Source: Dehalococcoidia bacterium (GTDB lineage: Bacteria > Chloroflexota > Dehalococcoidia > Plut-88900). From it: a stretch of 64,000 nucleotides of DNA. The stretch's first letter is position 1; every line of letters begins with the position of its first letter. The notes under the pieces are model-generated. The model saw only the letters and a program-made list of their open reading frames with translations, did no database searches and was not told the origin of the DNA. Positions 60 to 52,847 of the stretch are shown one piece after another. Made by a program: the position numbers and the translations under genes. The DNA is taken from assembly GCA_965197585.1 (NCBI GenBank), contig OZ240215.1, positions 1,536,001 through 1,600,000 of the forward strand, given 5' to 3'.

Positions 60-1541
60 CTAGTCTTTGAGTTCTAGGGTCGTGACACTGCCCGTCGAAA
101 GGGTAGCAACCCTGATTGCGTGATTGTTCGTGTCGGCAATGTACATCTTGCCGTTCGCAATGGCCAAACCTTCCGGCTCATAGAAGAGGGCCGCTCTGGC
201 GGGTCCGTCCTCGAACCCCGTGTCCCCCAGCCCCGTGAAGCTCACGACAGCCTGGGTTAGAGGCTCGATCCGCTTGATCTTGTTGTTGTAGGTGTCCGTC
301 ACGTACAGCATCCCCTCGTGCCAGCACACACCCTGCACGTGCTGAAGAAGTGCCCTGTCCCCGACTCCATCCTTGTCCCCGAAGTCGAACAGGCCCGTTC
401 CCACAACCGTGCTCACCTTCCCCGATTCTCCTCGAGTTGCCGTGCGCACTGCGCTAGTCTCACTGTCCGCGAAGTAGATCGTATCGCCGTCAGTGTCTAT
501 TCCCGTCGGCTGGGCCAGCATAGCGTTGCGGAGAGACCCATCCTTGATGCCCTCCCTGCCGCTTCCGGCAAATGGTCCCACGTACCCGGACTCCAGGTGC
601 ATCACCCAAAGCTGGTGGAACCCCGCCATAGCGATGTAGAGCATCCCGTCCAGGCAGGTCAGGTCCCACGGCGAGTTCAAGGCTACCGACCCCACACCCC
701 CATCGTGGAACATCCGCGCCTGCTCACCCGTCCCGGCTATCGTCTCCACCCGACGCTCCCGCAGGTCTATGCGACGGATGGCGTGGTTCTCCGTATCAGC
801 CACGTACAAACTGTCGCCCGACAGGGTCAGACCATGAGGATGGTGGAATTTCGCATCGGCGTATTCACCATCCTCCAGCCCCACGTCCCCACCCCCGATC
901 ACGTCCAAGATCTTCCCATCCAGGGAAATCGAGAGCACTCGGTTGTGGTTGGAGTCAGACACGAAAAGCCGAGACCCCTTCTCATCGGCGATGATCTTGC
1001 TCGGGAACGAGAGCGTTCCGCCCTCCTCCTTGTGCGCCGAAAGCCCTGGTATCGGGGTTCGGTCCAGCGTACCCCTCGCCTCAAACTCGGTAATCATGTC
1101 CCGGATCACCCTGTCGAAAGCATCGAAGGTAATCTCCCCCTCGTGCCTTCCCAAAATGTTCCCCTCAGGGTCGACCACGTAAAGCGTCGGCCAAGCCCTC
1201 GCTGAGTACTGGCTCCACACCCGGAAGTCCTTGTCGTTCACCACCGGGTGCTCCAGCTCGAATCGCCGGATCGCCTTCTCGATGTTGGCTGTGTCCTTCT
1301 CTGAGGTGAATTTGGCAGAGTGGACGCCCACCACCACCAGCTCCTCCTGGTATTTCTCTTCAAGTTTCCGCAACTGCGGAAATATGTGCATGCAGTTAAC
1401 TCAGCAGTATGTCCAGAAGTCCAGGATGACTATCTTGCCCTTCAGGTCCTCCATGCTCAAAGGGCGCTCGACGTTCAGCCAGTCGATGTCCCTCGGAAAA
1501 TCCGGGGCCTTTACGCTGCCTACCATAGTCTGTTGTGCCAT
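60..1541 (-). CDS. Thioredoxin-like domain + NHL-repeat beta-propeller protein (NHLRC2/SOQ1-like), predicted selenoprotein (Sec TGA at 1401-1403)
   Basis: The frame continues upstream of the 443-aa ORF as [15 protein letters not shown]...[24 protein letters not shown], matching the family motif DFWTYCCINC. GAGGAG RBS precedes the ATG at 1541. NHL repeats ([22 protein letters not shown]) follow. Confidence 0.9.
1365..1382 (-). promoter_or_regulatory. Putative bacterial SECIS hairpin
   Basis: TTTCCGC-AGTT-GCGGAAA starts 19 nt downstream of the in-frame TGA, with G at the 2nd loop position. Confidence 0.6.
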
Positions 1542-2660: not shown

Positions 2661-2966
2661 TCACACTCTTTCCCTAGTCGCGACCCGCGACCTCGCTCTC
2701 TCAATCAGCCGACCACTCAAATACTTGTGAATCACGCTGGAAAGCAGTGTCTGATACGGGATACCTTCCTCCCTCGCCCGAGCATGGGCCAGATTGAAGT
2801 CGCGCTCCGTCACCCGAAGATTCACCCTTTTGGTCTTGTTGAACGTATTTCGTGCGGCCTCTCGGGCCCATTGTATTTCCTTCTCCTCATTGGCAACGGG
2901 CCGCAACTCTCCCCGCTCAAATCGCTCTAGTATGTCAAGCTCTTCTTCAGTCATTCTGTCCTTCAT
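2661..2966 (-). CDS. BrnA/CopG-like ribbon-helix-helix antitoxin
   Basis: RVNLRV...AREEGIPYQTLLSSVIHKY motif; ATGA overlap with the upstream toxin. Confidence 0.8.
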   Translation of the reverse strand: MKDRMTEEELDILERFERGELRPVANEEKEIQWAREAARNTFNKTKRVNLRVTERDFNLAHARAREEGIPYQTLLSSVIHKYLSGRLIERARSRVATRERV

Positions 2967-3247
2967 TTTGTCCTCCTCCTTCGCCTTCTCGTCTCCCTGC
3001 TACTAGGGATTATCGTTTTAAGGAACGCACTCCCATCTTCTTGTCTCACAAATGGCACTAGATAAACATGCGCGTTCATTTCAACAACGTAGATTTGTTG
3101 CCCAGGATATCGAGCCTGGTTCGGGTGGTCCCGCACTGCCAATTGACCACCCAGTTCTAATGATGACACGATATGCTCGAATGATACTCCCCTCTGCTCG
3201 ATTAGTTGTTGATTCTTTTCTTCGTTCCATTCAAACCCTGAGTGCAT
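2963..3247 (-). CDS. BrnT-family toxin (type II TA)
   Basis: FEWNEEKN...RGVSFE N-terminus and ...FLKTIIPS C-terminus; toxin-first order. Confidence 0.8.
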   Translation of the reverse strand: MHSGFEWNEEKNQQLIEQRGVSFEHIVSSLELGGQLAVRDHPNQARYPGQQIYVVEMNAHVYLVPFVRQEDGSAFLKTIIPSSRETRRRRRRTK

Positions 3248-3385: not shown

Positions 3386-4558
3386 CTACCCCAGATACTC
3401 CAGCGCCGCCTCCGTCATCACTTTCAACCCGACCTCCAGCGCCCGCTCATCGAAACCAAACGTCCCGCTGTGATGGGGCCCGTATCCCCCCTCCTCATCC
3501 CCACCCCCGACAATGAAGTAGCACCCAGGCACTTCCTTCTGGAAGTAGGCCATGTCATCGCCGCCCATTGATGGTTCGCAGTCGATTACGTTTTCAGCTC
3601 CAATGGCCCGAGTCGCGGCACTGCGGACCAGGGCCGTCATTGCGGGTTCGTTCATGACCACCGGGCTCTGATAAATGTCCTCGAACGTGTACGACGCTCC
3701 CGCCGCGGCCGTAATACCGCTCAGCACTTCTTCAATACGACCCATAACCCTGTCCCGCGTCCCGTCATCAAAGGCCCGCACCGTGCCCTTTAGCTCGACC
3801 TCCTCAGGGATTATGTTGAACGCCGTCCCGCCCCTAATCATCCCGATGCTCAGCACCGCCGCTTCCAGGGCCCCTACGTTCCGACCCACTATCTGATGTA
3901 GCGCACTCACTGTCTGCCCCGCGACCAATATCGGGTCGATCAACGACTCCGGGTGGGCCGCGTGACCGCCGGTCCCCTGGATTCTGATTGTGAACTCGTC
4001 CACGCTGGCAAACATGCCCCCCACCCTAACCCCCACCCTGCCGGCTTCAAGCCCATTGATGATGTGAAGGGCCAGGGCCGCATCGACTTTCGGGTCCTCC
4101 AGCGCGCCCGACTCTATCATCCCCAGGGCCCCGCCCGCGGTCTCCTCCGCCGGCTGGAAAGCGAACTTAACGTTCCTCTTAAGCTTTCCCCTCATCCCCG
4201 CCAACACCGACGCCACTGACATAGCCACGGCTACGTGTCCGTCGTGGCCTCAGGCATGCATCTTCCCCGGCTCACGAGAGCAATAGTCCGCATCGTTGTC
4301 CTCCTCGACAGGCAAAGCGTCCATGTCCGCCCTAATGAGCAACGTCTTCCCACCCGACCCCCCTCTCAGCAGTCCTGTAACCCCCGTACCCCCCACCCCA
4401 GTCTTCACCTCCAGCCCCAGTTCCCTTAACCCATCTGCCACCATCCCCGCCGTCCTCTCCTCCTCGAAAGACAACTCCGGGTGGCTGTGAATGTCCCTCC
4501 GAAGTGCCACCATTGAGGGTATAACTTTCTCGTATGCGTGGCTCAGGTCTAGCGTCAT
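3386..4558 (-). CDS. M20D amidohydrolase (YxeP/ILR1/hippuricase-like), predicted selenoprotein (Sec TGA at 4250-4252)
   Basis: ORFs 4250..4594 and 3386..4228 are in one frame, joined by ...RADMDALP...GKMHA-TGA-GHDGHVAVAMS...FQPAEE (family motif MHACGHD). AAGGAG RBS precedes the ATG at 4558. Confidence 0.9.
4212..4248 (-). promoter_or_regulatory. Putative bacterial SECIS hairpin
   Basis: GCCAC...ACGTAGC-CGTG-GCTATGT...GTGGC directly 3' of the TGA; apical loop about 21 nt from UGA with G at position 2. Confidence 0.65.
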
Positions 4559-4652
4559 GGAAATTCTCCTTGAATATGGACTGGTGCAGCCCAAGGCTAA
4601 GCGGATTCTATATCACGCCCCGAGCCCCATCCAATACCCCCACCCCACCCCT

Positions 4653-5058: not shown

Positions 5059-5400
5059 ATGGTAAGCCTAACCCCTCTGGCCCTTGAAAAAGTCAAGGAG
5101 TTCATCGCCGAGCAGAGCGAAGAAGAAATCTCGCTTCGCGTCATGATCGCCGGCATGGGCTGCGGCGGACCCCAGTACATGATGTCCCTGGACAACGAAA
5201 TCTCCGCCGAGGACCTCACCGTTGAGCAAGACGGCTTGACCGTTGTCTACGACCCCGAGAGCGCTCCCATGCTTGACGGCTCACAGATCGACTACATCGA
5301 GACTCTGGAGCGCTCCGGCTTCACCGTCAACAACCCCAACTTCCAGAGCGGTGGCGGAGGCGGCTGCGGTGGCAACTGCGCCTGCGGCCGAGGCGGCTAA
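5059..5400 (+). CDS. HesB/IscA/ErpA A-type Fe-S cluster assembly protein
   Basis: LRV..GMGCGGPQY, IDYIE..GFTVNNPN and a Cys-rich C-terminus. Confidence 0.9.
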   Translation: MVSLTPLALEKVKEFIAEQSEEEISLRVMIAGMGCGGPQYMMSLDNEISAEDLTVEQDGLTVVYDPESAPMLDGSQIDYIETLERSGFTVNNPNFQSGGGGGCGGNCACGRGG

Positions 5401-5464: not shown

Positions 5465-5517
5465 GATTGTGCATTAGTGTTATATTGGCATCATACCGCA
5501 GTCAAAAAGGAGTTACA

Positions 5518-5760
5518 ATGGCTGTAAATCTCTCCATTAGAGAAGTTCCCGACGATTGGGCTGAAAAGCTGAAAGAAAGGGCAAGGCGCAACCACCGCTC
5601 GCAGCAGGGAGAACTGCTTGCAATACTTGAAGAAGCCCTCAGACCCGGACGCCTATCTATAGAAGAGGTTCACCAAAAGATTCAAAGTATGCATTTACGC
5701 ACACCCGATGAATCTACCCAATGGATAAGGGAAGATCGAGATGCCGGGTATAGTAGCTGA
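5518..5760 (+). CDS. FitA/Arc-like ribbon-helix-helix antitoxin
   Basis: NLSIREVPD...LKERARRNHRS.QGELLAILEEA; AAGGAG RBS; overlaps the PIN toxin. Confidence 0.8.
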   Translation: MAVNLSIREVPDDWAEKLKERARRNHRSQQGELLAILEEALRPGRLSIEEVHQKIQSMHLRTPDESTQWIREDRDAGYSS

Positions 5761-6124
5761 TGCATCCGTCCTAGCCGCAATTGCCTTCGGAGAACCCAAT
5801 AGGTTGCAAGCACTTGCCCTCGTATCGGGCCATGAGATTCATGCTCCGTCCCTCATGGCATTTGAGATGGCCAACATTGCTTGGAAGAAGATTCTTAGAA
5901 ACCCTTCTCAACATCTGACTACATCAAAAGGGCTAGATGCGATGCTCAGCGGAGCTATCTATTGGACTAAAGTGGACTTCAATAAGACCCTCGAATTAGC
6001 CCTCGAGACTGGACTGACCGCCTACGACGCCAGTTGCCTCTACCTGGCTCAGACCCTCGGCATGCCGATAGCCACCTTCGACAGGAAATTGAGCTCCACA
6101 GCCCAGGCCCGAGGCATCTTCTAG
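5741..6124 (+). CDS. vapC: VapC/PIN-domain toxin
   Basis: VADASVL, E.AN, LTAYDASCL.LA and TFD PIN motifs. Confidence 0.85.
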   Translation: MPGIVADASVLAAIAFGEPNRLQALALVSGHEIHAPSLMAFEMANIAWKKILRNPSQHLTTSKGLDAMLSGAIYWTKVDFNKTLELALETGLTAYDASCLYLAQTLGMPIATFDRKLSSTAQARGIF

Positions 6125-18811: not shown

Positions 18812-19456
18812 ATGCCAGTTTACTATCCCGCATTTCTCAGTATTGAGGGCCGACCCTGCCTCGTCGTCGGCGGTGGCCAGATCGCCGAGCGAAAGGTCAA
18901 GGGCCTCTTGGAGGCTGGGGGCAAGGTTACCCTGGTAAGCCCCACCGTCACCCCGAGACTCCTCCGCCGCATAGACAAGGGCCAGGTCGAGTATTTCAAC
19001 CGTGAGTTCCAGTCCTCGGACATGGACGGCATATACCTCCTAATCACCGCCACCGACGACATGCCCCTCAATCGAGAGATCGGCATCGAAGGCCGCAACC
19101 TCGGCCTCGTCGTCAACGTCGTCGACGATCCCGACTATTGCGACTTCATCGCCCCCTCAATCGTCCGCCGCGGCGAGATCACCTTCGCTATCTCTACAGC
19201 CGGGGCCAGTCCCGCATTGGCCCGTTGGCTCCGACGCCAAATCGAGCAACAGTTCCCACCCTCATACGCCGGTCTTGCCAAGGTCATGGCCAAGGTCCGT
19301 CTCCAGGTTAGAGGCGGAGGCCACGTCGTCAGTGCAACTAAGTGGCAAAAGTCTATAGATGAGAGCTTCTTGACCCTGGTCAAGCAACGCAGGCTCGCCG
19401 AAGCCAGGCGTCACCTTTTCGCTGCTCTGACCAGCAGCCGGTCCACGGCCAGATGA
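18812..19456 (+). CDS. Precorrin-2 dehydrogenase/sirohydrochlorin ferrochelatase (SirC/CysG N-terminal-like)
   Basis: LVVGGGQIAERK, VNVVDDP.YCDF and ISTAGASP motifs. Confidence 0.9.
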   Translation: MPVYYPAFLSIEGRPCLVVGGGQIAERKVKGLLEAGGKVTLVSPTVTPRLLRRIDKGQVEYFNREFQSSDMDGIYLLITATDDMPLNREIGIEGRNLGLVVNVVDDPDYCDFIAPSIVRRGEITFAISTAGASPALARWLRRQIEQQFPPSYAGLAKVMAKVRLQVRGGGHVVSATKWQKSIDESFLTLVKQRRLAEARRHLFAALTSSRSTAR

Positions 19457-19469
19457 ACGAGCCGCGACG

Positions 19470-20393
19470 GTGATGAACACCATAAAACTGGGTACGCGGG
19501 CCAGTGATCTCGCTATGGAGCAAACCCGAGAAGCGTCCCGGGCCCTCACCCGAGCCTACCCGGACCTTAACGTCGAAATCGTACCCGTACATGCCCTCGG
19601 AGACCACGATAAGGTGTCCCCCATCGCCAAGCTGGGCGCTCGGGGCGTCTTCGTATCTACATTGGAAGACCGGCTCCGCTCCTGCGAGATCGACGCCGCA
19701 GTCCACAGCCTTAAGGACATGCCCACTGATACCGCCGAGGGATTCGTACTCGCCGCAGTACTGGAACGCCTCGATCCCCGGGACGTCCTGCTCACCTCCA
19801 ACGGCTGCGGACTGAAAGACCTGGCCCCAAATGCCCGCGTCGGCACCGGAAGCCCCCGACGCGCAGTTCAGATCAAGTCTGCTCGCCCAGATATTGAAAT
19901 CACCGGCATACGCGGCAACATCGACACACGTATCCGCAAGCTCAACAACGGTGACTACGATGCCATTGTCCTCGCCGCCGCGGGTCTCATCCGCATGGGT
20001 TGGCAGGACCGCATAGCAGAGTACCTCCCTGTTGAGACCTGCCTTCCTTCCATGGGCCAGGGCGCACTCGCCATCGAGACCCTCGCCACCAACACGGAGG
20101 TCACCCAACTCTTCGCCGAAATCGAGCACACCCCGACCCGCCGGGCGGTCGACGCCGAGCGGTCCTTCCTAAGGCAACTTGGCAGCGGTTGTCTCGCTCC
20201 GGTCACCGCTCACGCAACATTGAACGGCGATACCTTGGCCTTGACCGGTCTAGTCGGCCACCCCGAAACTTATCAAATTATGACTGATTCCATAGAAGGA
20301 AGCCCTGAAGACCCCGAAGGTCTGGGAATACGCCTCGCTGAAAGGTTCATGGCCCAGGGCGCAGAATCCTTGCTCGCAGGAGTTGTATCGTGA
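19470..20393 (+). CDS. hemC: Hydroxymethylbilane synthase (porphobilinogen deaminase)
   Basis: GTRASDLA, AVHSLKDMP, RGNIDTR and GCLAP motifs. Confidence 0.95.
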   Translation: MMNTIKLGTRASDLAMEQTREASRALTRAYPDLNVEIVPVHALGDHDKVSPIAKLGARGVFVSTLEDRLRSCEIDAAVHSLKDMPTDTAEGFVLAAVLERLDPRDVLLTSNGCGLKDLAPNARVGTGSPRRAVQIKSARPDIEITGIRGNIDTRIRKLNNGDYDAIVLAAAGLIRMGWQDRIAEYLPVETCLPSMGQGALAIETLATNTEVTQLFAEIEHTPTRRAVDAERSFLRQLGSGCLAPVTAHATLNGDTLALTGLVGHPETYQIMTDSIEGSPEDPEGLGIRLAERFMAQGAESLLAGVVS

Positions 20394-21916
20394 GCCGAGT
20401 CGGCTTGGTAGCCCTTGTCGGCGCGGGTCCCGGAGACCCGGGCCTCATCACCGTCAAGGCCTTGGAATACATCAAACACGCCGACGTTATCGTATACGAC
20501 AGGCTGGTAAACCCTGTCCTCCTGGACCATGCCCTCGAGACCTGTGAACTGGTCTACGTGGGCAAAACTCCAAAACATCACACCAAGACGCAGGACGAGA
20601 TCAACAACATCCTGGTCGCCCAGGCCAAACAGGGCAAGCTCGTCGTCAGGCTCAAGGGCGGCGACCCCTTCCTATTCGGCAGGGGAGGGGAGGAAGCCGA
20701 GGTCCTTGCCGCCGAAGACCTGCCTTTTGAGGTCATACCCGGCGTCTCCTCCGCAATCGCTGCTCCCGCTTACGCCGGCATCCCGGTCACCCACCGCGAC
20801 CTATCCTCCTCGGTTGCCGTGGTCACCGGCCACGAGGACCCTGAAAAGTCCCGGGTCTCCGTTGACTGGGCCGCCCTCGCCCACGGCCCCGATACCCTTG
20901 TCATCCTTATGGGCCTCGGCAATCTTCAGTCGATTACTGACCGGCTTATTGAGGCCGGTAAGTCCCCCGATACTCCCGTCGCGCTCATACAGGACGCCAC
21001 CACCCCCGACCAGAAAACTGTCATCGGCACACTTGCCGATATCGCCCAGAAAGCCAGTGAAGCAGGCCTAAAGCCCCCTGCCGTCGCCGTAATAGGAGAC
21101 GTGGTGCGCCTCCGAGAACAGATCTCGTGGCACGAGACCCGGCCCCTTTCCAACCGCCGCATCCTCGTAACCCGTGCCCGTAAGCAGGCCAGCGCCCTAT
21201 CTTTCAGGCTCGCCGCTCTGGGTGCGGAAGTAATCGAGCTTCCCGCTATTGAAATTACCCAGTCGCCCGATCACCGGAAAGCCCTTGGAGAGGCGGTCGG
21301 CAGTGTGCACGAATACGACTGGGCTATCTTCACCAGCGTGAACGGTGTCTCCCTATTTTTTGACCGATGGCGCACCCTTGGGGCCCTACCCGACTCCCTG
21401 AACGGCTTGAAACTTGCCGCCATCGGCCCCGAGACCGCCAAGGCCATCGGGAGCTACGGTTTCCCCGTATCCGTCACCGCCTCTACCTATACCGCTGAAG
21501 GACTCCTGGATTCCCTAGCCACCCTGGACATGCAAGGGACCAGAGTCATGCTCCCAAGAGCCGAGGGTTCCAGGCCCGTGCTTCCCGCAGGGCTGACAAA
21601 AATGGGCGCAACTGTGGACGAGTTCCTTACCTACGGCGCCTCGGGCCCACAAAGAAAGCCCGAGCAGGCTATTAAACGGCTCCGGGCCGGAGAGGTGGAT
21701 ATCGCCACCTTCGCCAGCTCGTCCACGGTTAAGAACCTTGTTCGCATGCTGGAAGGCGACGTCTCCCCCCTGAAAGACACTTGCGTGGCCTGCATAGGCC
21801 CCGTGACGGCTGCAACTGCCGAGGAACTTGGCCTGGATGTCACCATTGTGGCCCGTGAACACACCATACCCGGGCTCGTAGACGCTATACTTGAAGGCAA
21901 AGGAGGTCTGACATGA
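20390..21916 (+). CDS. cobA: Uroporphyrinogen-III C-methyltransferase / uroporphyrinogen-III synthase fusion (CobA-HemD)
   Basis: GAGPGDPGLIT and RLKGGDPFLFGRGGEE, followed by a HemD domain (ILVTRA, FTSVNGV, FASSSTV). Confidence 0.93.
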   Translation: MSRVGLVALVGAGPGDPGLITVKALEYIKHADVIVYDRLVNPVLLDHALETCELVYVGKTPKHHTKTQDEINNILVAQAKQGKLVVRLKGGDPFLFGRGGEEAEVLAAEDLPFEVIPGVSSAIAAPAYAGIPVTHRDLSSSVAVVTGHEDPEKSRVSVDWAALAHGPDTLVILMGLGNLQSITDRLIEAGKSPDTPVALIQDATTPDQKTVIGTLADIAQKASEAGLKPPAVAVIGDVVRLREQISWHETRPLSNRRILVTRARKQASALSFRLAALGAEVIELPAIEITQSPDHRKALGEAVGSVHEYDWAIFTSVNGVSLFFDRWRTLGALPDSLNGLKLAAIGPETAKAIGSYGFPVSVTASTYTAEGLLDSLATLDMQGTRVMLPRAEGSRPVLPAGLTKMGATVDEFLTYGASGPQRKPEQAIKRLRAGEVDIATFASSSTVKNLVRMLEGDVSPLKDTCVACIGPVTAATAEELGLDVTIVAREHTIPGLVDAILEGKGGLT

Positions 21917-22932
21917 CCAGTTTGCTTGAGCAGATGGTACCAACTCAGGGTTCTGGATTCCCCATTCAGAGGCTCCGACGTTTACGCCGAACCCAGGCTA
22001 TGCGGGACCTGACCAAGGAAACTACCTTGAGCCCCAGCGACTTCATTTACCCGATGTTCGTCACGCAGGACTCGGGCCAAAAGCGTGAAGTCTCTTCTAT
22101 GCCGGGGGTCTACCAGATGTCCCCGGACATCGCCGCCAAGGAAACGGAGGAAGTCGCTGCGCTCGGTATTAAGGCGGTGCTTCTCTTCGGCCTGCCCAAA
22201 GAAAAAGACTCCGTCGGCACAGGGGCCTACGACCCCAACGGAGTTATTCAAGAAGCGGTCGCCAGCATAAAAAACGCCTCCCCCGACACCCTCGTCATCA
22301 CTGACGTCTGCCTCTGCGAATACACCGACCACGGCCACTGCGGCGTCATCGTCGACGAATATGTCGACAATGACCAGACCCTGGAACTCCTGAGCAGGAC
22401 AGCCCTCTCCCACGCCGAGGCTGGCGCCGACATCGTTGCTCCTTCCAACATGATGGACGGCGCCGTCGCCTCCATCCGGGATATCCTCAACCGAAACGAC
22501 CTCGACCTCACTCCCATCATGGCCTACTCGGCCAAGTACGCCTCCTCCTTCTACGGGCCCTTCAGGGACGCCGCGAACTCCACTCCCTCCTTCGGAGACC
22601 GTAAGTCCTACCAAATGGACCCCCGAAACTCTCGAGAGGCCCTTCTGGAGATAGATTTGGACATCCAGGAAGGCGCCGATATAATCATGGTCAAGCCCGC
22701 GCTGGCGTTTCTGGACGTAATATCCAAGGCCCGAGAAGCCTTCCGCCAACCCCTCGGGGCCTACAACGTCAGCGGCGAATACGCTATGGTCAAGGCCGCG
22801 GGCCGTAACGGCTGGCTCGACGAAAAGAAAGTCACCATGGAAATCCTGACCGGCATCAAACGTGCGGGCGCCGACCTCATCCTTAGCTACCACGCCAAAG
22901 AGGTCTCTCGCTGGCTAAGGGAACAGGAGTAG
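21913..22932 (+). CDS. hemB: Porphobilinogen synthase (ALA dehydratase)
   Basis: DVCLCEYTDHGHCG, MVKPAL and AYNVSGEY motifs. Confidence 0.96.
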   Translation: MTSLLEQMVPTQGSGFPIQRLRRLRRTQAMRDLTKETTLSPSDFIYPMFVTQDSGQKREVSSMPGVYQMSPDIAAKETEEVAALGIKAVLLFGLPKEKDSVGTGAYDPNGVIQEAVASIKNASPDTLVITDVCLCEYTDHGHCGVIVDEYVDNDQTLELLSRTALSHAEAGADIVAPSNMMDGAVASIRDILNRNDLDLTPIMAYSAKYASSFYGPFRDAANSTPSFGDRKSYQMDPRNSREALLEIDLDIQEGADIIMVKPALAFLDVISKAREAFRQPLGAYNVSGEYAMVKAAGRNGWLDEKKVTMEILTGIKRAGADLILSYHAKEVSRWLREQE

Positions 22933-22941
22933 TTACACCCA

Positions 22942-23523
22942 ATGAGTTTCGTATCCCTGGCCCTGAAGGAATGGGCAGTAATCACCCGGGCACTGGCCCG
23001 CGGCGAACAATTCCTCGTCCTCCGCAAGGGCGGCATCCGTGAACAGCAAAAGCGCTTCGTCCTGGAGGGCAACCGATTCCTCCTATATCCCACCTACGAG
23101 CACCAGAGTGTAGATCTCCTCAAGCCCCAGTGGCACGACTCCCTCGCCCAGACTCTGACCCAAGCCCCGTCACCCGACACCGTTATCATCGATACCCTCG
23201 CCGAGGTCGTTGAAATCCTCGAAATCACCGAGCCTGAACGCGTAACCGCACTCACCGACTTCTACATCTGCACTGACGACTACGCCCAGTATCGGCTCAA
23301 GTGGCGGCCCAAGCACGCCCTGTCGATCATCCTTCTCCGGGCAATGAAGCTGAAGCGCCCTCAAGCCATCCCGGTCCTGCCTCGATATGGCGGTTGCATC
23401 TCCTGGGTGGAGCTTGAAGAGCCCATCAACGTTACCGGAGCCACCGCCGTAGTGCCCGACGAAACCCTCCGCTCCGAAATCATCCGCATTAAGGAGGCCG
23501 TGGGCACGGTAGTCCCAGTATGA
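22942..23523 (+). CDS. DUF1802 family protein
   Basis: ALKEWA...LRKGGIRE...FLLYPTYEHQ...YGGCISWV. Confidence 0.8.
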   Translation: MSFVSLALKEWAVITRALARGEQFLVLRKGGIREQQKRFVLEGNRFLLYPTYEHQSVDLLKPQWHDSLAQTLTQAPSPDTVIIDTLAEVVEILEITEPERVTALTDFYICTDDYAQYRLKWRPKHALSIILLRAMKLKRPQAIPVLPRYGGCISWVELEEPINVTGATAVVPDETLRSEIIRIKEAVGTVVPV

Positions 23524-24515
23524 AATACCGTACGATACCCAACACCGACCTATCTGTATCCGAGACCGGTTTCGGCACCTGGACACTGGTCAGTAACTGG
23601 TGGGGTAATGTCAGCGAAGAGGATTCCGTCAAGCTCATCCACAAAGCCCTCGATCTTGGCATAAACCTCTTCGATACCGCCGACCAGTACAGCTCCGGCG
23701 CCAACGAGGAAGTCGTCGCCAAGGCTCTCAAGGGTCAGCGCAACGACGTCGTTCTCTGCACCAAGGTCGGCTACGACTTCTATACCTTCACCGCCCGCAT
23801 CCGGCACAAGGAAAAACCACAGAACTTCGAACCCCATTTCATCAGAGAGGCCTGCGAAAAGAGCCTTCAACGCCTCCAGACCGACTGGATAGACGTCTAC
23901 CAGCTCCACAACCCCCGTATAAATGTCATTGAGCGGGACGACGTTTTCGAAACCCTGGAAGACTTGAAGAAAGAAGGCAAGATTCGCCACTATGGCGTGG
24001 GCCTCGGCCCCGACATAGGCTGGTTCGAAGAGGGCCAGGCCTCCATGCAGGAGCGATCGGTCTCCACCCTCCAAATCATCTACAGCATCCTGGAGCAGGA
24101 CCCGGCCCAGGACTTCTTCCCTATCGCCAAGGATTGCGGCACGGGCCTTTTCGTGCGCGTGCCCCACGCCAGCGGTTTGCTCGATGGTACCGTCAACCGG
24201 GACACCGTATTCCCGGAGACCGACCACCGCAGTTACCGCAAGCAGGAGTGGCTCGACGAAAGCATGATCAAGGTCGATCAGATCGGCTTCCTCACCGAGG
24301 ACACTGGCCTGACCATAGGCCAGGCCGCCATAAAATTCTCTCTCGGTCAAGATACCGTCTCTTCCGTCCTGATCACTGTAACCGACCCCGTACAGCTCGA
24401 AGAGTTCGCCAAAGCCCCGGACCTTCCCGACCTTCCCCAGGAATACCTTGACCGAGTGTACGAGCTTTATCGAAATAACTTTGGCATAACCCCGGCGCCC
24501 ACCGCCGCAAGTTAA
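23520..24515 (+). CDS. Aldo/keto reductase
   Basis: FDTADQY, TKVG and SLQRLQTDWIDVYQLHNP (catalytic D/Y/K/H present). Confidence 0.92.
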   Translation: MKYRTIPNTDLSVSETGFGTWTLVSNWWGNVSEEDSVKLIHKALDLGINLFDTADQYSSGANEEVVAKALKGQRNDVVLCTKVGYDFYTFTARIRHKEKPQNFEPHFIREACEKSLQRLQTDWIDVYQLHNPRINVIERDDVFETLEDLKKEGKIRHYGVGLGPDIGWFEEGQASMQERSVSTLQIIYSILEQDPAQDFFPIAKDCGTGLFVRVPHASGLLDGTVNRDTVFPETDHRSYRKQEWLDESMIKVDQIGFLTEDTGLTIGQAAIKFSLGQDTVSSVLITVTDPVQLEEFAKAPDLPDLPQEYLDRVYELYRNNFGITPAPTAAS

Positions 24516-24552
24516 ACCAGACCCGACCCAAATCGACTTACCAGGAGCAAGA

Positions 24553-25554
24553 ATGGTCGCCAAGACTGCCACGGAACTCACCACAACCCAGAAGGAGCTT
24601 CTAAACACACTGCAGTGGGACTTTCCTTTGGTAGAAGAGCCCTTCTCCGAGATTGGCGCAAGGCTTGGCTTGACTGAGGGAGAGGTAATCGGTCAAATAG
24701 CCACGCTCAAGGACGAGGCCATAATCAGGGAGCTAAACGCCATATTCGACACCCGGAGGCTCGGTTACAAGAGCTCCCTTGTAGCCGTCCGTGCCCCCGA
24801 GGACCGCGTCGACGACGTAGCGGCCGTAATCAGCGAACACCCCGGAGTCAGCCACAACTACAAGCGCGACCACTATTTCAACATCTGGTTCACCCTCGCC
24901 GTACCGCCGGAAAGCGACCTGGAATCGGAGCTCGACTCCCTTGCCGCACGCGCCGGTGCCGAGAAGTACCGCCTGCTGCCCACCAAGCACCTGTTCAAGA
25001 TCGGCGTGAAACTGGACATGACCAAGGATGAGGTAAAGCTGGAACCCGAGAAGCGCGTAGCCAAAAAGTCCAGGCCGACCGCTGGGCCCTTAACCGACGA
25101 AGACCGGGCCTTCGTTCGGGAACTTCAGGAAGACGTCCCCTTGGTCCCGCGCCCCTTTGACGGCATGGCCAAAAGGCTGGGTATGACGGTTCCCGGGCTG
25201 TTGGAGAAAATCCAGTGGTTTCAGGATGTGGGGTTTATGCGCCGGTTCGCCGCAGTGCTTAGGCACCAGAACGCGGGCTTCACTTCCAACGGTATGGTCT
25301 GCTGGAAAGTGCCGGAGGAGCAGATCAGGAGCGTGGGAGAGATTGCAGCTTCATTCCCTCAAGTGAGCCACTGCTACCAGAGGCCCACTTACCCCGACTG
25401 GCCCTACAGCCTCTTCAGCATGGTTCACTCGCGGTCCGATGATAAATGCCGCAAGATTGCTGAGCAGATCTCTGAAAAGACCGGAATCACCGAGTACGAG
25501 ATCCTTTTCAGCACGAAGGAATACAAGAAGGAGCGGGTCAGGTATTTCGTTTAA
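24553..25554 (+). CDS. Fused siroheme decarboxylase AhbA-AhbB (NirDL/GH-like, AsnC fold)
   Basis: Two tandem AsnC-like halves with VSHNYKR..FNIWFT and VSHCYQRP.YPDWPYSLFSMVH; located in the tetrapyrrole operon. Confidence 0.85.
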   Translation: MVAKTATELTTTQKELLNTLQWDFPLVEEPFSEIGARLGLTEGEVIGQIATLKDEAIIRELNAIFDTRRLGYKSSLVAVRAPEDRVDDVAAVISEHPGVSHNYKRDHYFNIWFTLAVPPESDLESELDSLAARAGAEKYRLLPTKHLFKIGVKLDMTKDEVKLEPEKRVAKKSRPTAGPLTDEDRAFVRELQEDVPLVPRPFDGMAKRLGMTVPGLLEKIQWFQDVGFMRRFAAVLRHQNAGFTSNGMVCWKVPEEQIRSVGEIAASFPQVSHCYQRPTYPDWPYSLFSMVHSRSDDKCRKIAEQISEKTGITEYEILFSTKEYKKERVRYFV

Positions 25555-30319: not shown

Positions 30320-31729
30320 TTAACGGCGCTCCCTCATGGACTGCCCTCTGCGGGGACGCGAAACCCTGGTCTCCCCGCTCCGGTAGTCCGGGGCTTCGTC
30401 GATTCCGTAGAACATTGTTAGGCTCGGGTCAGCCAGCCGGGAGCTTATTCTCTCGTCCATCTCGTCCAGCGGGAGCGCCGTGGTTATTACCGTCGGCAGC
30501 CTGCCGTTATAACGATAGTTTATGATCTGGTACAACTTCTCCTTGGCCCAAGGCGTGGCTGCCTGCTCCCCGTAGTCGTCCAAAACCAGCAAAGCAACGG
30601 TCCGCACTTTGTTGAACAGCTCGTCATATGTGATTTTCGCGTCCAGGGAATATGTGGAACGCAGGTAGTCCAGCAAGTCCGGCACAAGGATGAATAGGCC
30701 CTCTTTGCCCCGACTCCGATGGTAGTGAGCGATGGACGCAGCGAGGTGTGTCTTCCCTCGGCCCGGCGGCCCCATCAACACCATCCACCCGTCCAGCGAC
30801 TCTGCGAAGTTGATCGCCGCCCTGTACGCCCCTTCCAGGTTCTGCTTGGCGTCCCCGCGCAAGCCCCTCCCTCCGGGCTTAAACGACTCGAACGTCATGC
30901 CCGATGGCAGGGCCAGACTCAGACTGTCCATGGAACTGAGCACCGATGACCGCCGCTCCACCTCAACGACCGTAGACAGGGCAGGGTCCGTCAGTCGGCT
31001 TTGCAGACTTTCGTCCAACCGGTCCAGCGGAACGTTCGTGGTCACCACCGTGGGAAGCTGGGCGTTGAACCGATGGTTCAGTACCTGGAACAGCTTTTCT
31101 GCTGCCCACGGGCTGCTCGTCTGCGCCCCAAGGTCATCAAGTATCAGCAGCGGCACGTTCCTCACCTGCTCGAACAATTCATCGTAGGTGACCTCGCTGT
31201 TCGGGCCGAAAGTAGCCCTCAGATGATCGAGGAGGTCGGGGACGACCATAAAGAACGTTCTGACCCGGAGGCCGATACAATAGTTGGCTACCGCCGCCGC
31301 AATATGCGTCTTTCCGCCGCCGCTGTTTCCCGTGAGTACCAGCCAGCCCCGAGGCTCCATCGCGTACCGTTTCGCCGCCTCGTAGGCCGCATGAAACAGC
31401 CGCCGATTGTCCTCATCCGGACTCCGGCCTTGTGGAATCAGGTTGTCGAAGGTCAGCCTTGCCAGCGGCCCGAGGTTGCTGTAGCGCTCCAGGCGCTGAG
31501 GGATTCCGGCATCCCATTCCAACTGCATGCACCTGCAGGGCAGTGCCTTGCCAAAGTCGGCGTGGCCAAAGGGAACATCAGATGTCACCCACCCGACGCC
31601 CCCACAGATCTCGCATTCCGGGTCACCGCTGTCTTTAGTCGAATCTGCGGCGGACGAGATGCCCGTATCTCCCCTGGAAATACCTGTCCGTATCTTCTCT
31701 TGATTTAGTATGTCCCCGATCCGTTCCAC
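30320..31729 (-). CDS. DnaC/IstB-like helicase loader with two tandem AAA+ domains
   Basis: CxxC..CRC zinc motif, two Walker A (GGGKTH, GRGKTH) and two LDD.G Walker B; downstream of dnaB-dnaD. Confidence 0.88.
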   Translation of the reverse strand: MERIGDILNQEKIRTGISRGDTGISSAADSTKDSGDPECEICGGVGWVTSDVPFGHADFGKALPCRCMQLEWDAGIPQRLERYSNLGPLARLTFDNLIPQGRSPDEDNRRLFHAAYEAAKRYAMEPRGWLVLTGNSGGGKTHIAAAVANYCIGLRVRTFFMVVPDLLDHLRATFGPNSEVTYDELFEQVRNVPLLILDDLGAQTSSPWAAEKLFQVLNHRFNAQLPTVVTTNVPLDRLDESLQSRLTDPALSTVVEVERRSSVLSSMDSLSLALPSGMTFESFKPGGRGLRGDAKQNLEGAYRAAINFAESLDGWMVLMGPPGRGKTHLAASIAHYHRSRGKEGLFILVPDLLDYLRSTYSLDAKITYDELFNKVRTVALLVLDDYGEQAATPWAKEKLYQIINYRYNGRLPTVITTALPLDEMDERISSRLADPSLTMFYGIDEAPDYRSGETRVSRPRRGQSMRERR

Positions 31730-32351
31730 CGCTCCTGCCTTCCGTCTTCCATTTCTTCAGAATGGCCTCGATGTATCTCCAGCTCCGAGCCTCGTACTTG
31801 ACTGCTTCCTGGATCGCCTCGGCAATCCATTCTTCGGGATAATTATCCAGGGCATCGTTGAGTTCGTCGGACACCAGAGGCGTAAGAGGCCCGATATTGT
31901 CCTCGTATAGCGAGAAGATATTGGGCCGAGATTCACCGGCCGTAACGTCGACGGGCACCCTTCCGAAATCAATGTCTCTGCTCTGGATGCGTGTGAGGTC
32001 CCTGGCCGCCGTCGGAGTATTCAGCATATACAGCTGATTCCTCAGCCCCTCGGCCTCGACCTCCGTCGTAATCAATATCCCCTTCTCCACCGCCCCCCTC
32101 AGCCCCTGCTCCAATACCTCGACTCGTTCAGTTAGGTGCTCTCCCAGACTAAGCGTCAAAGTCTTGTCGCCTAGCAGTTCCCTGAACGTCACAAATCGCG
32201 GTGACCCTTTCTTCTGCTGGAGGGCCCAGAAAACGTGCAGGGCTATCTTCAGTTCTGCCGCGTCCTTGATCAACGGCATGAGCCGGGTGAAAAAGACGTT
32301 GGGGATTGCCGTCTTTTGAGAGTTTGGTTGAAAACCCTCGAACGCCGCCAT
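31635..32351 (-). CDS. DnaD domain replication protein
   Basis: NIFSLYEDNIGPLTP...EAIQEAV...RSWRYIEAILKKW. Confidence 0.85.
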   Translation of the reverse strand: MAAFEGFQPNSQKTAIPNVFFTRLMPLIKDAAELKIALHVFWALQQKKGSPRFVTFRELLGDKTLTLSLGEHLTERVEVLEQGLRGAVEKGILITTEVEAEGLRNQLYMLNTPTAARDLTRIQSRDIDFGRVPVDVTAGESRPNIFSLYEDNIGPLTPLVSDELNDALDNYPEEWIAEAIQEAVKYEARSWRYIEAILKKWKTEGRSGGTDRGHTKSREDTDRYFQGRYGHLVRRRFD

Positions 32352-32358
32352 CAGACGG

Positions 32359-33714
32359 CTATGCCACGCCTACAGGCAATGGCTCGAACTTCGCGAGATG
32401 GTCTATGAACCGCAGCTGCACCGTGCCCGTAGGCCCGTTCCTGTGCTTCCCGACTATGATGTCCGCTATCCCCTTCGGGTACATCTGGTCCGGGAACAGC
32501 TTGTTCCACTGCTGCTCGTCATAGTAACGATCGGCCTTATAGATAAACATCACCACGTCTGCATCCTGCTCAATGCCCCCACTCTCTCTCAGATCGGACA
32601 GCATGGGCCGGTGGTCATTTCGCAGCTCCGGCGCTCGGCTGAGCTGCGATAACGCCAGTAGGGGCACGTCCAGGTCCCTCGCCAGCAGCTTCAGAGACCT
32701 GGATATCTCGCTCATCTCCGCAACGTTATTGTCGCCCCGCTGAAGCATCAACCCTATGTAGTCCACGATGATCAGATCAACGGGGTTTTCCAGGTGCAGC
32801 CGTTTCGCCTTGCTGCGAAGCTCAACGATGTTCAGCAAGGCCGAATCGTCTATGTAGATCGGAGCCTGGGCCAGCTTACCCGTCGCCTCAATGACGTTGG
32901 CCTCTTCATCCGCCGTGAACTCCCCAAGCCTGAACTTCCGCGTATCGACCCCCGACTCACTCGAAAGCAGACGCTGCACCACCTGCTGCTTACCCATCTC
33001 CAGGCTGAATACCGCCACCCGAGCCCCCTGCTCCAATGCAGCAGTGCGGGCGATGTTCAGCGCAAGGCTGCTTTTCCCTAAACTGGGCCTCGCCGCCAAT
33101 ATAATCAGGTCCGAACGGTGCAGACCACCCAGCAGGGTGTCCAGGTTGTGGAAACCGGTCAAAGCCACCGACAATGGCCCTGCCTCGGCGTCCGGCCCGA
33201 ACCCGCTCTCATCGAGATACTGGTCCAGGATTTCCCGGATGTGGACGAAGTCCCGAGAACCCTGCCCGCTCCTAAGCTGGAACAGGATGTCTTCGGCCTT
33301 GCTGAGCGCCTCATCTTCGTCGGGGCCCGCTTCATACCCGATCTTGGATATCTGGCCGGCCGACTCGATGATCCGGCGCATCATCGCCATCCGGTGCACG
33401 ATACGCGCGTAATGCTCAATGTGCGCCGATGTCGGCACCACCGAGATCAGTTGACTCAGATACGCCGCCCCGCCTGCACTGGTCAGCCTATCCAGCCGTG
33501 AAAGCTCATTCTCGACCGAGACCTGGTCAATCGCCACCCCACGGTCGTACAACCCTATGCAGGCCTGATAGCACCACCGGTTCGACTCCCTGTAGAAGTC
33601 CTCGGGATTCAGCAGAGGCGCTACCTCAGGCATCGCATCGCCGTTAATCAGCAGCGATCCTAAAACCGAGTCCTCCGCATCTATATCGTGTGGTGGCAGT
33701 CTTTCCGCGTACAT
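32359..33714 (-). CDS. dnaB: Replicative DNA helicase
   Basis: PPHDIDAE, AARPSLGKS, LSQLSR, SDLRESGGIEQDAD and KHRNGPTG motifs. Confidence 0.97.
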   Translation of the reverse strand: MYAERLPPHDIDAEDSVLGSLLINGDAMPEVAPLLNPEDFYRESNRWCYQACIGLYDRGVAIDQVSVENELSRLDRLTSAGGAAYLSQLISVVPTSAHIEHYARIVHRMAMMRRIIESAGQISKIGYEAGPDEDEALSKAEDILFQLRSGQGSRDFVHIREILDQYLDESGFGPDAEAGPLSVALTGFHNLDTLLGGLHRSDLIILAARPSLGKSSLALNIARTAALEQGARVAVFSLEMGKQQVVQRLLSSESGVDTRKFRLGEFTADEEANVIEATGKLAQAPIYIDDSALLNIVELRSKAKRLHLENPVDLIIVDYIGLMLQRGDNNVAEMSEISRSLKLLARDLDVPLLALSQLSRAPELRNDHRPMLSDLRESGGIEQDADVVMFIYKADRYYDEQQWNKLFPDQMYPKGIADIIVGKHRNGPTGTVQLRFIDHLAKFEPLPVGVA

Positions 33715-41787: not shown

Positions 41788-42870
41788 ATGAGTCGCACAA
41801 GGCTAATCAGGCCCCGTCGTCCCCGAGCGGTATGTCACCGCCCGGCCCCCGGCACGCGCCTCCTCCCCAATCCTCATTCCCGCCTGGACCATTCCCTGAG
41901 GCGGGGCATTCCGCTCGCCCTGAGCCGAGTCGAAGCATGTCCTGAGCCCCGTCGAAGGGGGTCTCAAGAGCGGAATGGGTGGGGCCTCCTCCCCTGTCCT
42001 CTCCATCTCAACTCCCACTACAAGCGCTGCCCAAAGGCCCTACGCCTACGCCTTCGCAGCGATCAATCACCGTCCCGCCCCCTGCATGGAAGGTCCCCGG
42101 ACAAATCACGGCACGCCCTTTCCAAGGACCACTGCCAAGTGCGCGCCCCACTCAAACGGCGCTTAGGTTTCGCCTCTTCAGGCGACGCCCTGGAGCACAT
42201 CGTCATGTCTCCACCTCGGGCCATAGTGCCCCCTTGGGCCTCCGCGCCCTTACCGGACTCCCACGGCCTAGACCTTGCCGGCCAGTCCGAACAGTCGGAT
42301 GAGCGCCGACTCAAAACCAACGCACCCTTCTCGGACTCCGCCGTCGCAGCCCTTGCCGGCCAATCCGAACAGTCGGATGAGCGCCGACTCAAAACCAACG
42401 CACCATTTAAGGATTCCACCGTCGTCACAACCGGAGAACTTCCGACTACGAACGCCGGTCACGGGTCCACGCTCCCATCCCTTAGGGTGGTCGAGCACTT
42501 CTTTACGGATTCCACCGTCGTCACAACCGGAGAACTTCCGACTACGAACGCCGGTCACGGGTCCACGCTCCCATCCCTTAGGGTGGTCGAGCACTTCTTT
42601 ACGGATTCCACCGTCGTCACAACCGGACTACTTCCGACTACGAACGCCGGTCACGGGTCCCCGCTCCCATCCCTTGGGATGGTCGAGCACTTCTGGTGGT
42701 CGGGACTGCCCCACAGCGAGACTTCCTCGCGTCTCCTCCACATCCTCTCAGAAGTTCGGGGCTGTCGCAGAGTCGTCGCCGATGTGAACCGTCCCCAGGG
42801 GCGGACACCGTGCATCGGTACAGGCGTCGCCGTCTTCCTGCACAAACGTCCGGGACCTTCCATCCCCTCC
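41788..42870 (+). pseudogene. Internally deleted phage terminase large subunit-like relic, copy A (REP inserts, in-frame tandem duplications)
   Basis: AAGGAG-ATG start; GLDLAG...DSTVVT.GEL...VVEHFWWSG.PH...CRRVVAD...GTGVAVFL resembles a TerL RNase H-like nuclease domain; homologous to 54962-55500 and 62375-62890. Confidence 0.6.
42273..42694 (+). repeat. Tandem repeats: 78 bp x2, then 96 bp x3
   Basis: Units start at 42273/42351 and at 42411/42507/42603; near-identical copies. Confidence 0.9.
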
Positions 42871-42955
42871 CCCTCTGCCCCTCTAACAACCAAAACAGGT
42901 GTATACTCCCTCCATCCGGCATCCGGCCTTAGTCACCGACACGGGAGCAAGCGCC

Positions 42956-44284
42956 ATGACGAAGCTGAAGGTCGCTCACTACCTGAACCAGTTCTTCGCC
43001 GGCATCGGCGGCGAGGACAAGGCCAACACCTCACCGGGCACCGAACCCCGACCCCTCGGCCCCGGCAACTCCCTCCACCAGACCCTGACCTCCTCTGGCG
43101 ATGGAGCGGTCGTCGCAACCGTATTCTGCGGCGACACCTATTTCACCGAAAATGAAGAGGAAGCCCTCGACCGCATCGTCGAACTAGTCCGGGACTCTGG
43201 TGCCGACGTTCTCGTCGCCGGGCCCGCTTTCGGGTCGGGACGCTATGGCCTCGCCTGCGCCCAGGTCTGCCAAAAGGTTGCCTCTTCCCTCGGTATTCCC
43301 GTCGTAGCCGGAATGCACCCAGCCAGCCCGGGAGCCGAGCAGTACAAGGGCCAAGTCTACATCGCCTCCACCGCCGAGACCGCAGTCGGCATGCCAGCCG
43401 CCATCTCTGCTATGGCCAACTTGGCAGCAAAGCTAGGGCGTGGTGAAGAGCTCGGACCCGCCGACGAGGACGGCTATATACCCACCGGCCGGGTCAAGAC
43501 CCAGGTCCACGAAAAGACCATGGCCCAGAGACTTGTCGACATGGCCCTCAAGAAGGTCAGAGGCGAGCCTTTCGAGACCGAGTGGCCCCTCCCCACCATG
43601 GAGAAGATAGCCCCGGCGCCTGCCATAGATTCCTTGGCCGGTGCCCGTATCGCCCTCGTCACCGAGGGCGGCGTCGTCCCCAGGGGCAACCCCGACAAGA
43701 TTCCCAGCGGTTGGGCCCGCCACTGGGCCCGCTACGACATCGGCGAGACGTCAGACCTCACCGCCGAGGAATGGCAGTCGGTCCACGGCGGCTTCGATAC
43801 CACAACGTTAAACCGTGACCCGGACAGGGTCGTGCCCCTTGATGTGATGCGCGATCTGGAAGAAGAAAAGGCCATAGGCAAGGTCCATGAGTATATGTAC
43901 TCGACCGTCGGGAACCTTGGCTACGTCGCCAACATGAAGCAGTTCGGCCAGGATATCGCCGCCGAGCTTCAGGCCGCTGGCGTCCAGGGGGTGATCCTCA
44001 CCGGCACCTGAGGCACGGGTACACGTAGCGGCGCTACGCTTGCCAAAGAGTTGGAACGGGCCGGCCTTCCCACCGCCTTCATCACCGCAATGGTCCCATT
44101 GGCCCAGAGCATCGGTGCAAACCGGATCGTCCAGGGCAAATCAGTGACTACGACTACAGGCGACCCCAGCCTCCCCCCCGACGAAGAAAAAGCTTTCCGC
44201 CGACGCCTCGTCGAGAGGGCTCTCAAGTCACTGCAGTCCACTCCACAGGACCAGGAAGTCGTCTGGGGCGAGGACCGGGGCTAG
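42956..44284 (+). CDS. Glycine/betaine/sarcosine reductase selenoprotein B (GrdB)-family protein, Sec TGA at 44009-44011
   Basis: HYLNQFFAGIGGE, AGPAF.SGRYG, GNPDKI, HGGFD and DPDRVVPLD motifs. The frame continues GVILTGT-TGA-GTGTRSGATLAKELERAG into ORF 44051..44284. Confidence 0.9.
44012..44044 (+). promoter_or_regulatory. Putative bacterial SECIS hairpin
   Basis: GGCA...CGTAGC-GGC-GCTACG..TGCC directly after the TGA. Confidence 0.65.
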
Positions 44285-52039: not shown

Positions 52040-52074
52040 TGTAGGTTTCTCCCTGGGGATTGGGTGGGAACCCG

Positions 52075-52830: not shown

Positions 52831-52847
52831 GTCGGTTCTGCCTCCGC

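Follow-up and report, generated by a model that had tools for sequence, protein, structure and literature searches.

The 64,000-nucleotide stretch of contig OZ240215.1 from a Dehalococcoidia bacterium that was analysed here (positions 1,536,001 to 1,600,000, in the following called the window; G+C content 59.3%) carries at 3386..4558 (-) a gene for an amidohydrolase of the M20D family with a TGA codon at the position of a metal-binding cysteine. Under translation table 11, this gene appears as two open reading frames (ORFs), 4594..4250 (-) and 4228..3386 (-), which share one reading frame. A first-pass annotation had joined them into one frame of 390 codons interrupted solely by the TGA at 4250-4252 within MHA-U-GHD, and re-reading the sequence gave the same result. 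Translation from the ATG at 4558 with TGA read as selenocysteine (Sec, U) yields 390 residues followed by a TAG stop, and the TGA at 4252..4250 is the sole internal stop. This proposed Sec codon (4250..4252 (-), codon 103) lies at the metal-bridging Cys position in the context GKMHA-U-GHDGH. A Shine-Dalgarno sequence AAGGAG, found by sequence inspection, lies 7 nt upstream of the ATG (4566..4571 (-) and 4558..4556, respectively). The other M20D motifs, which had been reported as intact, are all present in the 390-residue translation (RADMDALP, FQPAEE, GGHAAHP and HHSGTF).

The window protein matches PF01546 Peptidase_M20 with 149.5 bits (residues 74-386) and, inserted in it, PF07687 M20_dimer with 50.4 bits (residues 188-280). 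With Sec entered as C, the NCBIfam model TIGR01891 'amidohydrolases' was matched over profile positions 1-366 of 366 with 350.9 bits at a cut-off of 153.75, while the scores for CpsA (364.1 vs 500 bits) and DoeB2 (271 vs 550 bits) stay below the equivalog cut-offs. The two-domain Peptidase_M20/M20_dimer arrangement, the TIGR01891 score and the non-Cys ligands described below place the protein in M20D. Relatives of solved structure are 1YSJ (YxeP, E = 1.4e-76), 4EWT, 1XMB (ILL2) and 6SLF (N-acyl-glutamine aminoacylase, N-AGA, E = 2.2e-46). Among the 25 NCBIfam matches of the window protein there is no selenoprotein-specific M20 model. The product is best read as an amide hydrolase of the N-acyl-amino-acid, dipeptide or carboxypeptidase type. 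Going by its membership in M20D, our best guess is that it acts on an N-acyl-L-amino acid or removes the C-terminal residue from short peptides.

The claim that the replaced cysteine is a ligand of the dinuclear metal site is borne out by N-AGA (6SLF): in the available part of PMC7209930, Cys-105, which is aligned with the TGA codon, binds both zinc atoms and Glu-141 coordinates one. The bridging Cys is also stated in the part of PMC11511702 that was available; M20A enzymes have a bridging Asp instead. Codon 103 of the window gene faces the Cys of MHACGHD in the alignments with all four solved relatives (1YSJ, 4EWT, 1XMB and 6SLF). With a constant offset of one between the chain and the numbering of the paper, the N-AGA alignment maps the site to U103, H105, E139 and H165. 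The codon of the bridging ligand in the window is hence TGA, opposite Cys-105 of N-AGA, and if it is read as Sec the ligand would be the selenolate analogue. By homology, His105 (codon 4244..4246 (-)) and His165 (4064..4066 (-)) are metal ligands corresponding to His-107 and His-168 of N-AGA, and Glu138-Glu139 (4142..4147 (-)) are the general base and a metal ligand corresponding to Glu-140 and Glu-141. All of these residues are found in 41/41 TGA forms, that of His105 being fixed by the search pattern described below. His362-His363 (3470..3475 (-)) form the HH motif that holds the fifth ligand, which may be either residue, as the 6SLF alignment ends at residue 347. H363 is present in 38/41 TGA-form rows and the three gaps are truncated rows. 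The conservation of E138, E139, H165 and H363 is independent of the search pattern.

M20D genes with an in-frame TGA at this codon are found well beyond the window. Scanning 185,579 species genomes with the DNA pattern ATGCAYGCNTGAGGNCAYGAYNNNCAY, corresponding to MHA-TGA-GHDxH, returned 40 loci. A pattern with 18 fixed and 4 two-fold positions should match about once by chance in 1.2e12 sites. Every locus is an M20D gene that matches the window protein in tblastn. In 37 of them the alignment stays in a single frame and meets no stop other than the TGA; these include L037, which ends at a contig end. By record title, the loci come from Dehalococcoidia/Chloroflexota (17), Planctomycetota (9), Methylomirabilota (5) and Ca. 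Fervidifonticultor (2); two are unclassified and five are singletons, one each from Poribacteria, Bacteroidia, Armatimonadota, 'Deltaproteobacteria' and Clostridia. They cover at least nine phylum-level groups. The closest locus to the window is L022 on the chromosome of a Dehalococcoidia metagenome-assembled genome (MAG), with 96% identity.

A collection of 5.8 billion proteins reflects the same codon through the ends of annotated fragments. Among the matches listed, the 15 with identities of 69% or more are all C-terminal pieces, 269-282 aa long, that begin just past the TGA. The remaining 105, at 47-53% identity, are full-length (389-424 aa) and in every case (105/105) have Cys at the codon-103 position. 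With the 102-residue N-terminal piece as query, 32 of the best 120 matches terminate exactly in ...MHA; 30 of these have 72-98% identity and 28 are exactly 102 aa long. Clusters of these fragments comprise 125 and 52 members without protein names. Pipelines had been expected to call such a gene a pseudogene; what they produce instead is a pair of fragments, 102 and about 280 aa long, neither of which is named. Two distant N-terminal fragments (P0167 and P0176, 54-55% identity; one Acetobacteraceae MAG, labelled 'partial') end exactly in ...MHA and may represent further TGA-form lineages or contig ends.

Selection was estimated within five clades as the ratio of nonsynonymous to synonymous substitution rates (dN/dS, Nei-Gojobori), with one value for the codons on each side of the TGA. 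In the window clade (9 sequences, 36 pairs of which 34 were usable upstream; L015 was excluded for a frameshift), the median was 0.131 upstream and 0.074 downstream. The corresponding values were 0.112 and 0.106 in a second Dehalococcoidia clade, 0.24 and 0.15 in Methylomirabilota, 0.21 and 0.25 in Fervidifonticultor/Armatimonadota and 0.43 and 0.31 in Planctomycetota; distant pairs are saturated at synonymous sites, which makes these values rough, and none is near 1. Both halves are thus under purifying selection, without the relaxation downstream of the TGA that had been named as a possible objection. With ratios this far below 1 in both halves, a dead gene is excluded. Taken with the genome scan, the UGA stands opposite the Cys of homologues, is kept in orthologues and is followed by an open frame under purifying selection, as is expected of a bacterial selenoprotein gene.

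Downstream of the UGA lies a hairpin resembling a selenocysteine insertion sequence (SECIS) at 4209..4243 (-), with an upper helix 4236..4230/4225..4219 and a lower helix 4243..4240/4212..4209. It spans 7-41 nt past the UGA, and its apical loop CGUG (4229..4226) starts 20 nt after the UGA. bSECISearch-type criteria place the apical loop some 16-37 nt from the UGA, with a G among the first loop bases. The hairpins of the TGA forms agree with this, that of the window with its CGUG loop at 20 nt. In nearly all TGA forms the apical loop lies 20-26 nt past the UGA, with the sequences GGUCU, GGGGU, GGUC, GGUCCUG or GUC, and CGUG in the window clade. Folded singly, the window sequence is not significant, so the SECIS claim needs more than single-sequence folding. 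We accept the hairpin as real because of its position, its covariation and the comparison with Cys forms; of the earlier SECIS assignment, the element itself thus stands and the fold of the window taken alone does not carry it.

Covariation was found in two helix registers. Register II (24 sequences, alignment A1) has an 8-pair helix in which 94.6% of the cells are paired vs 77.1% after shuffling, with 0/500 shuffles as high; both sides have changed in five of the eight pairs, and controls with slid partners are 23-66% paired. In register I (16 sequences including the window, alignment A2), pairing in the upper helix of 7 pairs reaches 92.4% (15 distinct sequences), and two pairs have changed on both sides. 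The 4-pair lower helix of this register is 70% paired, and one of its pairs alternates between C-G and U-A at two synonymous third positions. As an outside control, 12 Cys-form M20D genes from plasmids were used. Pairing of at least 85% in one register was observed in 38/41 TGA forms vs 0/12 of these controls, so that the covarying hairpin sought in other genomes is present there and missing from the Cys forms. In 40/41 TGA forms, folding is more stable just past the UGA than in the remainder of the gene (mean z = -1.24); at the same place the Cys-form controls have a mean z of -0.60, with 7/12 negative. Synonymous differences within the window clade amount to 0.235 in the 14 post-UGA codons vs 0.453 elsewhere, with 1 of 347 codon windows as low, and such a suppression was seen in four of the five clades. 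An unconstrained search for the best hairpin was noisy and was superseded by the search tied to the loop position. At gathering scores, Rfam returned no family in the 64-kb window; the sole match of a permissive Rfam scan, IRES_c-myc, was dismissed as meaningless.

Two further genes of the window carry TGA at sites typical of Sec. The GrdB-family 'selenoprotein B' gene at 42956..44284 (+) has a TGA at 44009-44011 in LTGT-U-GTGTRSG, a canonical Sec site, followed by a hairpin at 44024-44038. Read through, it matches TIGR01918 with 491.6 bits over positions 1-429 of 431, and when cut at the TGA with 393 bits over positions 1-345; it stays under the equivalog cut-offs of GrdB, GrdF and GrdH. A 455-aa ORF at 41788-43155 (+) without Pfam or NCBIfam match overlaps the start of this gene by about 200 nt and could be a spurious frame or an unrecognised reductase partner. 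The gene at 1541..60 (-) encodes a thioredoxin-fold (ResA/TlpA-like) protein with NHL repeats and has a TGA at 1403..1401 in FWTYC-U-VNC, a UxxC motif, with a 7-bp hairpin at 1365-1382 whose loop AGUU lies 25 nt past the UGA; it is probably the third selenoprotein gene of the window. Just two copies of the 9-mer ACACGTAGC are present in the 64 kb (0.30 expected; 4/100 shuffles reach two copies), and both form the 5' arm of a hairpin, starting 12 nt past the TGA in the M20D gene and 10 nt past it in the grdB-like gene. This shared arm points to a single SelB recognising both hairpins. TGA terminates 10 of the 38 family-matched ORFs of the window and thus serves as an ordinary stop elsewhere, in agreement with the standard code. 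Dehalococcoidia MAGs with 46 and 49 selenoprotein genes are listed in the available material of BSepDB, and the organism studied here presumably uses Sec as well. A scan of the window for ORF pairs joined by TGA gave too many chance candidates at 59% GC to be of help, and the lone selD line of the NCBIfam scan was a weak cross-match of PurL.

The TGA conserved at the Cys position, purifying selection on both sides of it, the covarying hairpin, the intact ligands and the other selenoprotein genes of the window form the basis of our interpretation. We are highly confident that the UGA is recoded and the gene functional, and consider it nearly as probable that the locus is an intact gene for a Sec-containing M20D amidohydrolase, with Sec as a ligand of the hydrolytic dinuclear metal site. 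In such an enzyme, the UGA at codon 103 would meet the ribosome while the hairpin 7-41 nt downstream recruits SelB and Sec-tRNA(Sec), and Sec would be inserted. The selenolate of Sec103 would bridge the two catalytic metal ions in place of the cysteine thiolate, and His105, Glu139, His165 and His362/363 would complete the site, with Glu138 as the general base. Metal-activated water would then cleave the amide bond by Lewis-acid/general-base chemistry, which is non-redox. Possible benefits of selenium would be a bridging ligand that resists irreversible oxidation, a lower pKa or an altered metal preference. Sec insertion and selenium-metal ligation are strongly suggested; the identity of the metal, the substrate and the advantage of selenium we likewise infer.

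Several observations weigh against this interpretation. Lesions occur in three of the 40 scan loci: L004 has a frameshift near codon 298, L015, which is 96% identical to the window gene, has one near codons 171-182, and in L006 a second stop, an in-frame TAG, lies 18 codons upstream of the TGA. Errors of assembly or the onset of decay may account for these lesions. MHA and GHD.H are invariant in the 40 loci by design of the search pattern. The Planctomycetota clade has the higher dN/dS values (0.31-0.43) and lacks the synonymous suppression after the UGA. Folded as a single sequence, the window hairpin reaches z = -0.81 for 66 nt, with 41/200 shuffles as good, and z = -2.18 for 48 nt, and several alternative folds compete. 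Its loop CGUG also departs further from the canonical form than do loops of the GGUC type in other clades. Both helix registers were derived from the same sequences in which pairs were later counted, which flatters the pairing figures, and the 12 Cys-form controls are distant, coming from proteobacterial and Paenibacillus plasmids with 33-44% identity. Finally, ARAGORN found no tRNA, hence no tRNA(Sec), in the 64-kb window, and none of the 58 window ORFs scanned with NCBIfam proved to be selA, selB or selD.

The lesions in 3/40 relatives, the split of the gene by gene callers and the lack of sel genes in the window could also be taken to mean that the TGA ends translation and that the gene is dead, be it a pseudogene, a recent nonsense mutation or an assembly error. 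We give this next to no weight, as the same TGA stands at the same codon in 40 species genomes from at least nine phylum-level groups, the dN/dS of the window clade is 0.07-0.13 on both sides, the other ligands are kept and the downstream hairpin covaries. Hardly more credible is a split enzyme, in which translation stops at the UGA and restarts at a nearby GTG or ATG, and the two chains, of 102 and about 280 aa, join to form an enzyme that lacks the bridging ligand. A start codon does occur within 8-11 codons in the window clade and has been adopted by the gene callers; however, the stop would fall exactly on the ligand codon in every lineage, and the stretch from the TGA to the next start encodes the ligand His105 and is open in frame in 41/41 sequences. 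The later start moreover varies between clades, and the solved M20D enzymes all have the bridging ligand.

Systems that recode a Sec codon to Cys exist. A hairpin-directed reading of the UGA as Cys, by a SelB-like factor and a tRNA with UCA anticodon charged with Cys, or as another residue, has to be considered, as our analysis offers nothing that separates Sec from Cys at a SECIS-directed UGA. We regard it as improbable, given that the GrdB-family and UxxC thioredoxin-fold genes of the window carry TGA at classic Sec sites, that Dehalococcoidia MAGs are among the selenoprotein-rich bacteria in the available material of BSepDB, and that a spread over many phyla is more easily explained by the standard Sec system than by a rare variant. 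The last alternative accepts Sec and differs in its use: the value of selenium could be redox or regulatory, as an oxidation-sensitive switch of the metal site or in reactions of substrates that contain selenium or sulfur. The majority of known selenoproteins are redox proteins, as stated in the available part of PMC13188914, and repeated interchange of Cys and Sec suggests a benefit that depends on the environment. Nevertheless, the entire hydrolytic site including the general base is conserved, and no redox partner or conserved neighbour was found among 138 flanking ORFs; we hold this possibility to be unlikely, if less so than the other alternatives. We therefore retain the Sec-containing hydrolase as our interpretation.

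The TGA forms do not make up a single clade. In a FastTree phylogeny of 41 TGA and 105 Cys forms they fall into several groups among the Cys forms; nine changes are needed, of which at least six are forced by well-supported branches. IQ-TREE was run with 36 TGA and 41 Cys rows, omitting L004, L006, L015 and L037 as damaged or cut, L031 for its very long branch and 64 near-duplicate Cys rows. Here ten changes are needed, and the approximately unbiased (AU) test rejects a single TGA clade (delta lnL = 206.7, p = 2.8e-6). The Cys rows in these trees are those nearest to the window, and the changes may be gains, losses or transfers. A comparison of residues that separate Sec and Cys forms was discarded because a single large clade of Ktedonobacteria within the Cys rows confounds it. 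With at least six Cys/Sec interchanges and at least nine phyla, selenium may repeatedly have entered a metal site of purely hydrolytic, Lewis-acid character, in which a selenolate bridging both ions would offer a property beyond that of sulfur; we see this as an even chance.

No neighbour is conserved across phyla among the 138 flanking ORFs of the 40 loci, and the context therefore gives no clue to the substrate. Recurrent neighbours in the window clade are a divergent HesB/IscA-type gene and FitA/PIN toxin-antitoxin genes, and in the second Dehalococcoidia clade the M20D gene adjoins a gene for glyceraldehyde-3-phosphate dehydrogenase (GAPDH). In the window, the HesB/IscA-type iron-sulfur (Fe-S) assembly gene, in its Cys form, lies at 5059-5400 (+), divergent to the M20D gene, as it does in L015, L022, L030 and L033 (4/9 window-clade relatives). 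HesB-like proteins are a known selenoprotein family elsewhere. Toxin-antitoxin pairs stand on either side of the M20D gene: a FitA-like antitoxin with a PIN toxin at 5467-6124 (+), and at 2661-3247 (-) a weak BrnT-like toxin with a small partner. The FitA/PIN pair adjoins the M20D gene also in L015 and L022, and a PIN gene is found there in L008, L030 and L035. In two of the plasmid Cys-form controls (L042 and L044), the M20 aminoacylase gene lies between genes for an LLM flavin oxidoreductase and a GNAT acetyltransferase, an arrangement that presumably resembles the B. subtilis yxe cluster containing yxeP; the window M20D gene has no such neighbours. Farther away in the window, at 30320-33714 (-), genes for a DnaB helicase and a DnaD-domain protein form a replication cluster with an ORF of 469 aa. 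Two distinct parts of this ORF match loader ATPases of the DnaC/IstB type, which looks like a duplication or a fusion. The siroheme and alternative heme (AhbA/B) gene set at 18812-25554 (+) and the complete suf Fe-S operon (sufB, C, D, S, U) at 48997-54284 (-) are ordinary housekeeping genes.

In line with the earlier remark that this type of selenoprotein was not recognised as characterised, our literature searches found no description of a Sec-containing M20 enzyme. The review PMC13188914 (2026), whose Table 1 is termed the most comprehensive inventory and holds 119 prokaryotic selenoprotein families and subfamilies, does not contain the words M20, peptidase, amidohydrolase, aminoacylase or hydrolase in its full text, and no such family is in the table. 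As protein names, M20, amidohydrolase, peptidase and aminoacylase are absent from the text and three supplementary files of deep-Sep and from the text and supplementary file of BSepDB, as far as these were available; 'M20' occurs 8 times in the latter file, as part of strain or isolate names in two instances. The same four names are absent from the ISME J 2016, GOS 2008, Olavius symbiont and Genome Biol 2006 papers, the 2022 review and SelCysML 2026. The word 'hydrolase' was looked for in main texts. Families of Haft & Gwadz 2023 and Haft & Tolstoy 2025 appear in the table of PMC13188914. A Campylobacter avium paper was considered as a precedent and rejected, as that species is without Sec and its hippuricase is ordinary.

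We thus propose that the TGA-form genes constitute a genuine, widespread and so far unlisted selenoprotein family, with a predicted Sec codon on the bridging ligand of a hydrolytic dinuclear site. If this is true, the selenoproteome gains a family that current inventories and predictors do not list, and metal-ligand cysteines of hydrolases would also be targets of Cys-to-Sec replacement. The many natural Sec/Cys orthologue pairs would allow one to ask why selenium is chosen outside redox catalysis. According to the available parts of PMC1794560 and PMC13188914, it is generally accepted that redox-active Cys gives rise to Sec; repeated recruitment, if it took place, would break this rule. In many MAGs of Dehalococcoidia, Planctomycetota, Methylomirabilota and other groups, the TGA-form genes are now annotated as two unnamed fragments.

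The closest known systems are the Cys-form M20D enzymes, represented by B. subtilis YxeP (1YSJ), the S. aureus M20 peptidase (4EWT), Arabidopsis ILL2 (1XMB) and Corynebacterium N-AGA (6SLF). They have the same two-domain architecture, share the ligand motifs MHA-x-GHD, PAEE, LH and HH with the window protein (E 1e-76 to 2e-46) and presumably act by the same dinuclear hydrolytic mechanism. They differ in the bridging codon, which is TGY instead of TGA, and the 12 Cys-form controls are without a SECIS-like hairpin. Amino acids 109-116 of the Sec form also differ from the Cys forms, presumably because the RNA must pair there. The YgeY family selenium metabolism-linked hydrolase (NF009555), which is M20-type, is a weak match (E = 7e-5, 21.8 bits vs a cut-off of 321), and the window protein is not a member. 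Judging by the name of the model, the selenium link of YgeY is a genomic association and not Sec content. The UshA-like selenoproteins are presumably homologues of a metal-dependent hydrolase of the 5'-nucleotidase type. Families 1 and 2 of this kind (NF041198 and NF049981), with predicted Sec, are the nearest precedent for a non-redox hydrolase homologue listed in the PMC13188914 table; compared by their table rows, they belong to another fold and family and have CxU/CxxU motifs, and no role of Sec is tabulated. Direct coordination of a catalytic metal by Sec is described in the available part of the same review for formate dehydrogenase (Mo/W) and [NiFeSe] hydrogenase (Ni). There, as in the window gene, a bacterial UGA stands ahead of a downstream hairpin. 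Both of these enzymes are redox enzymes with one Sec-metal bond, whereas the site in the window protein is a hydrolytic metal pair, of which the residue at codon 103 would bridge both ions.

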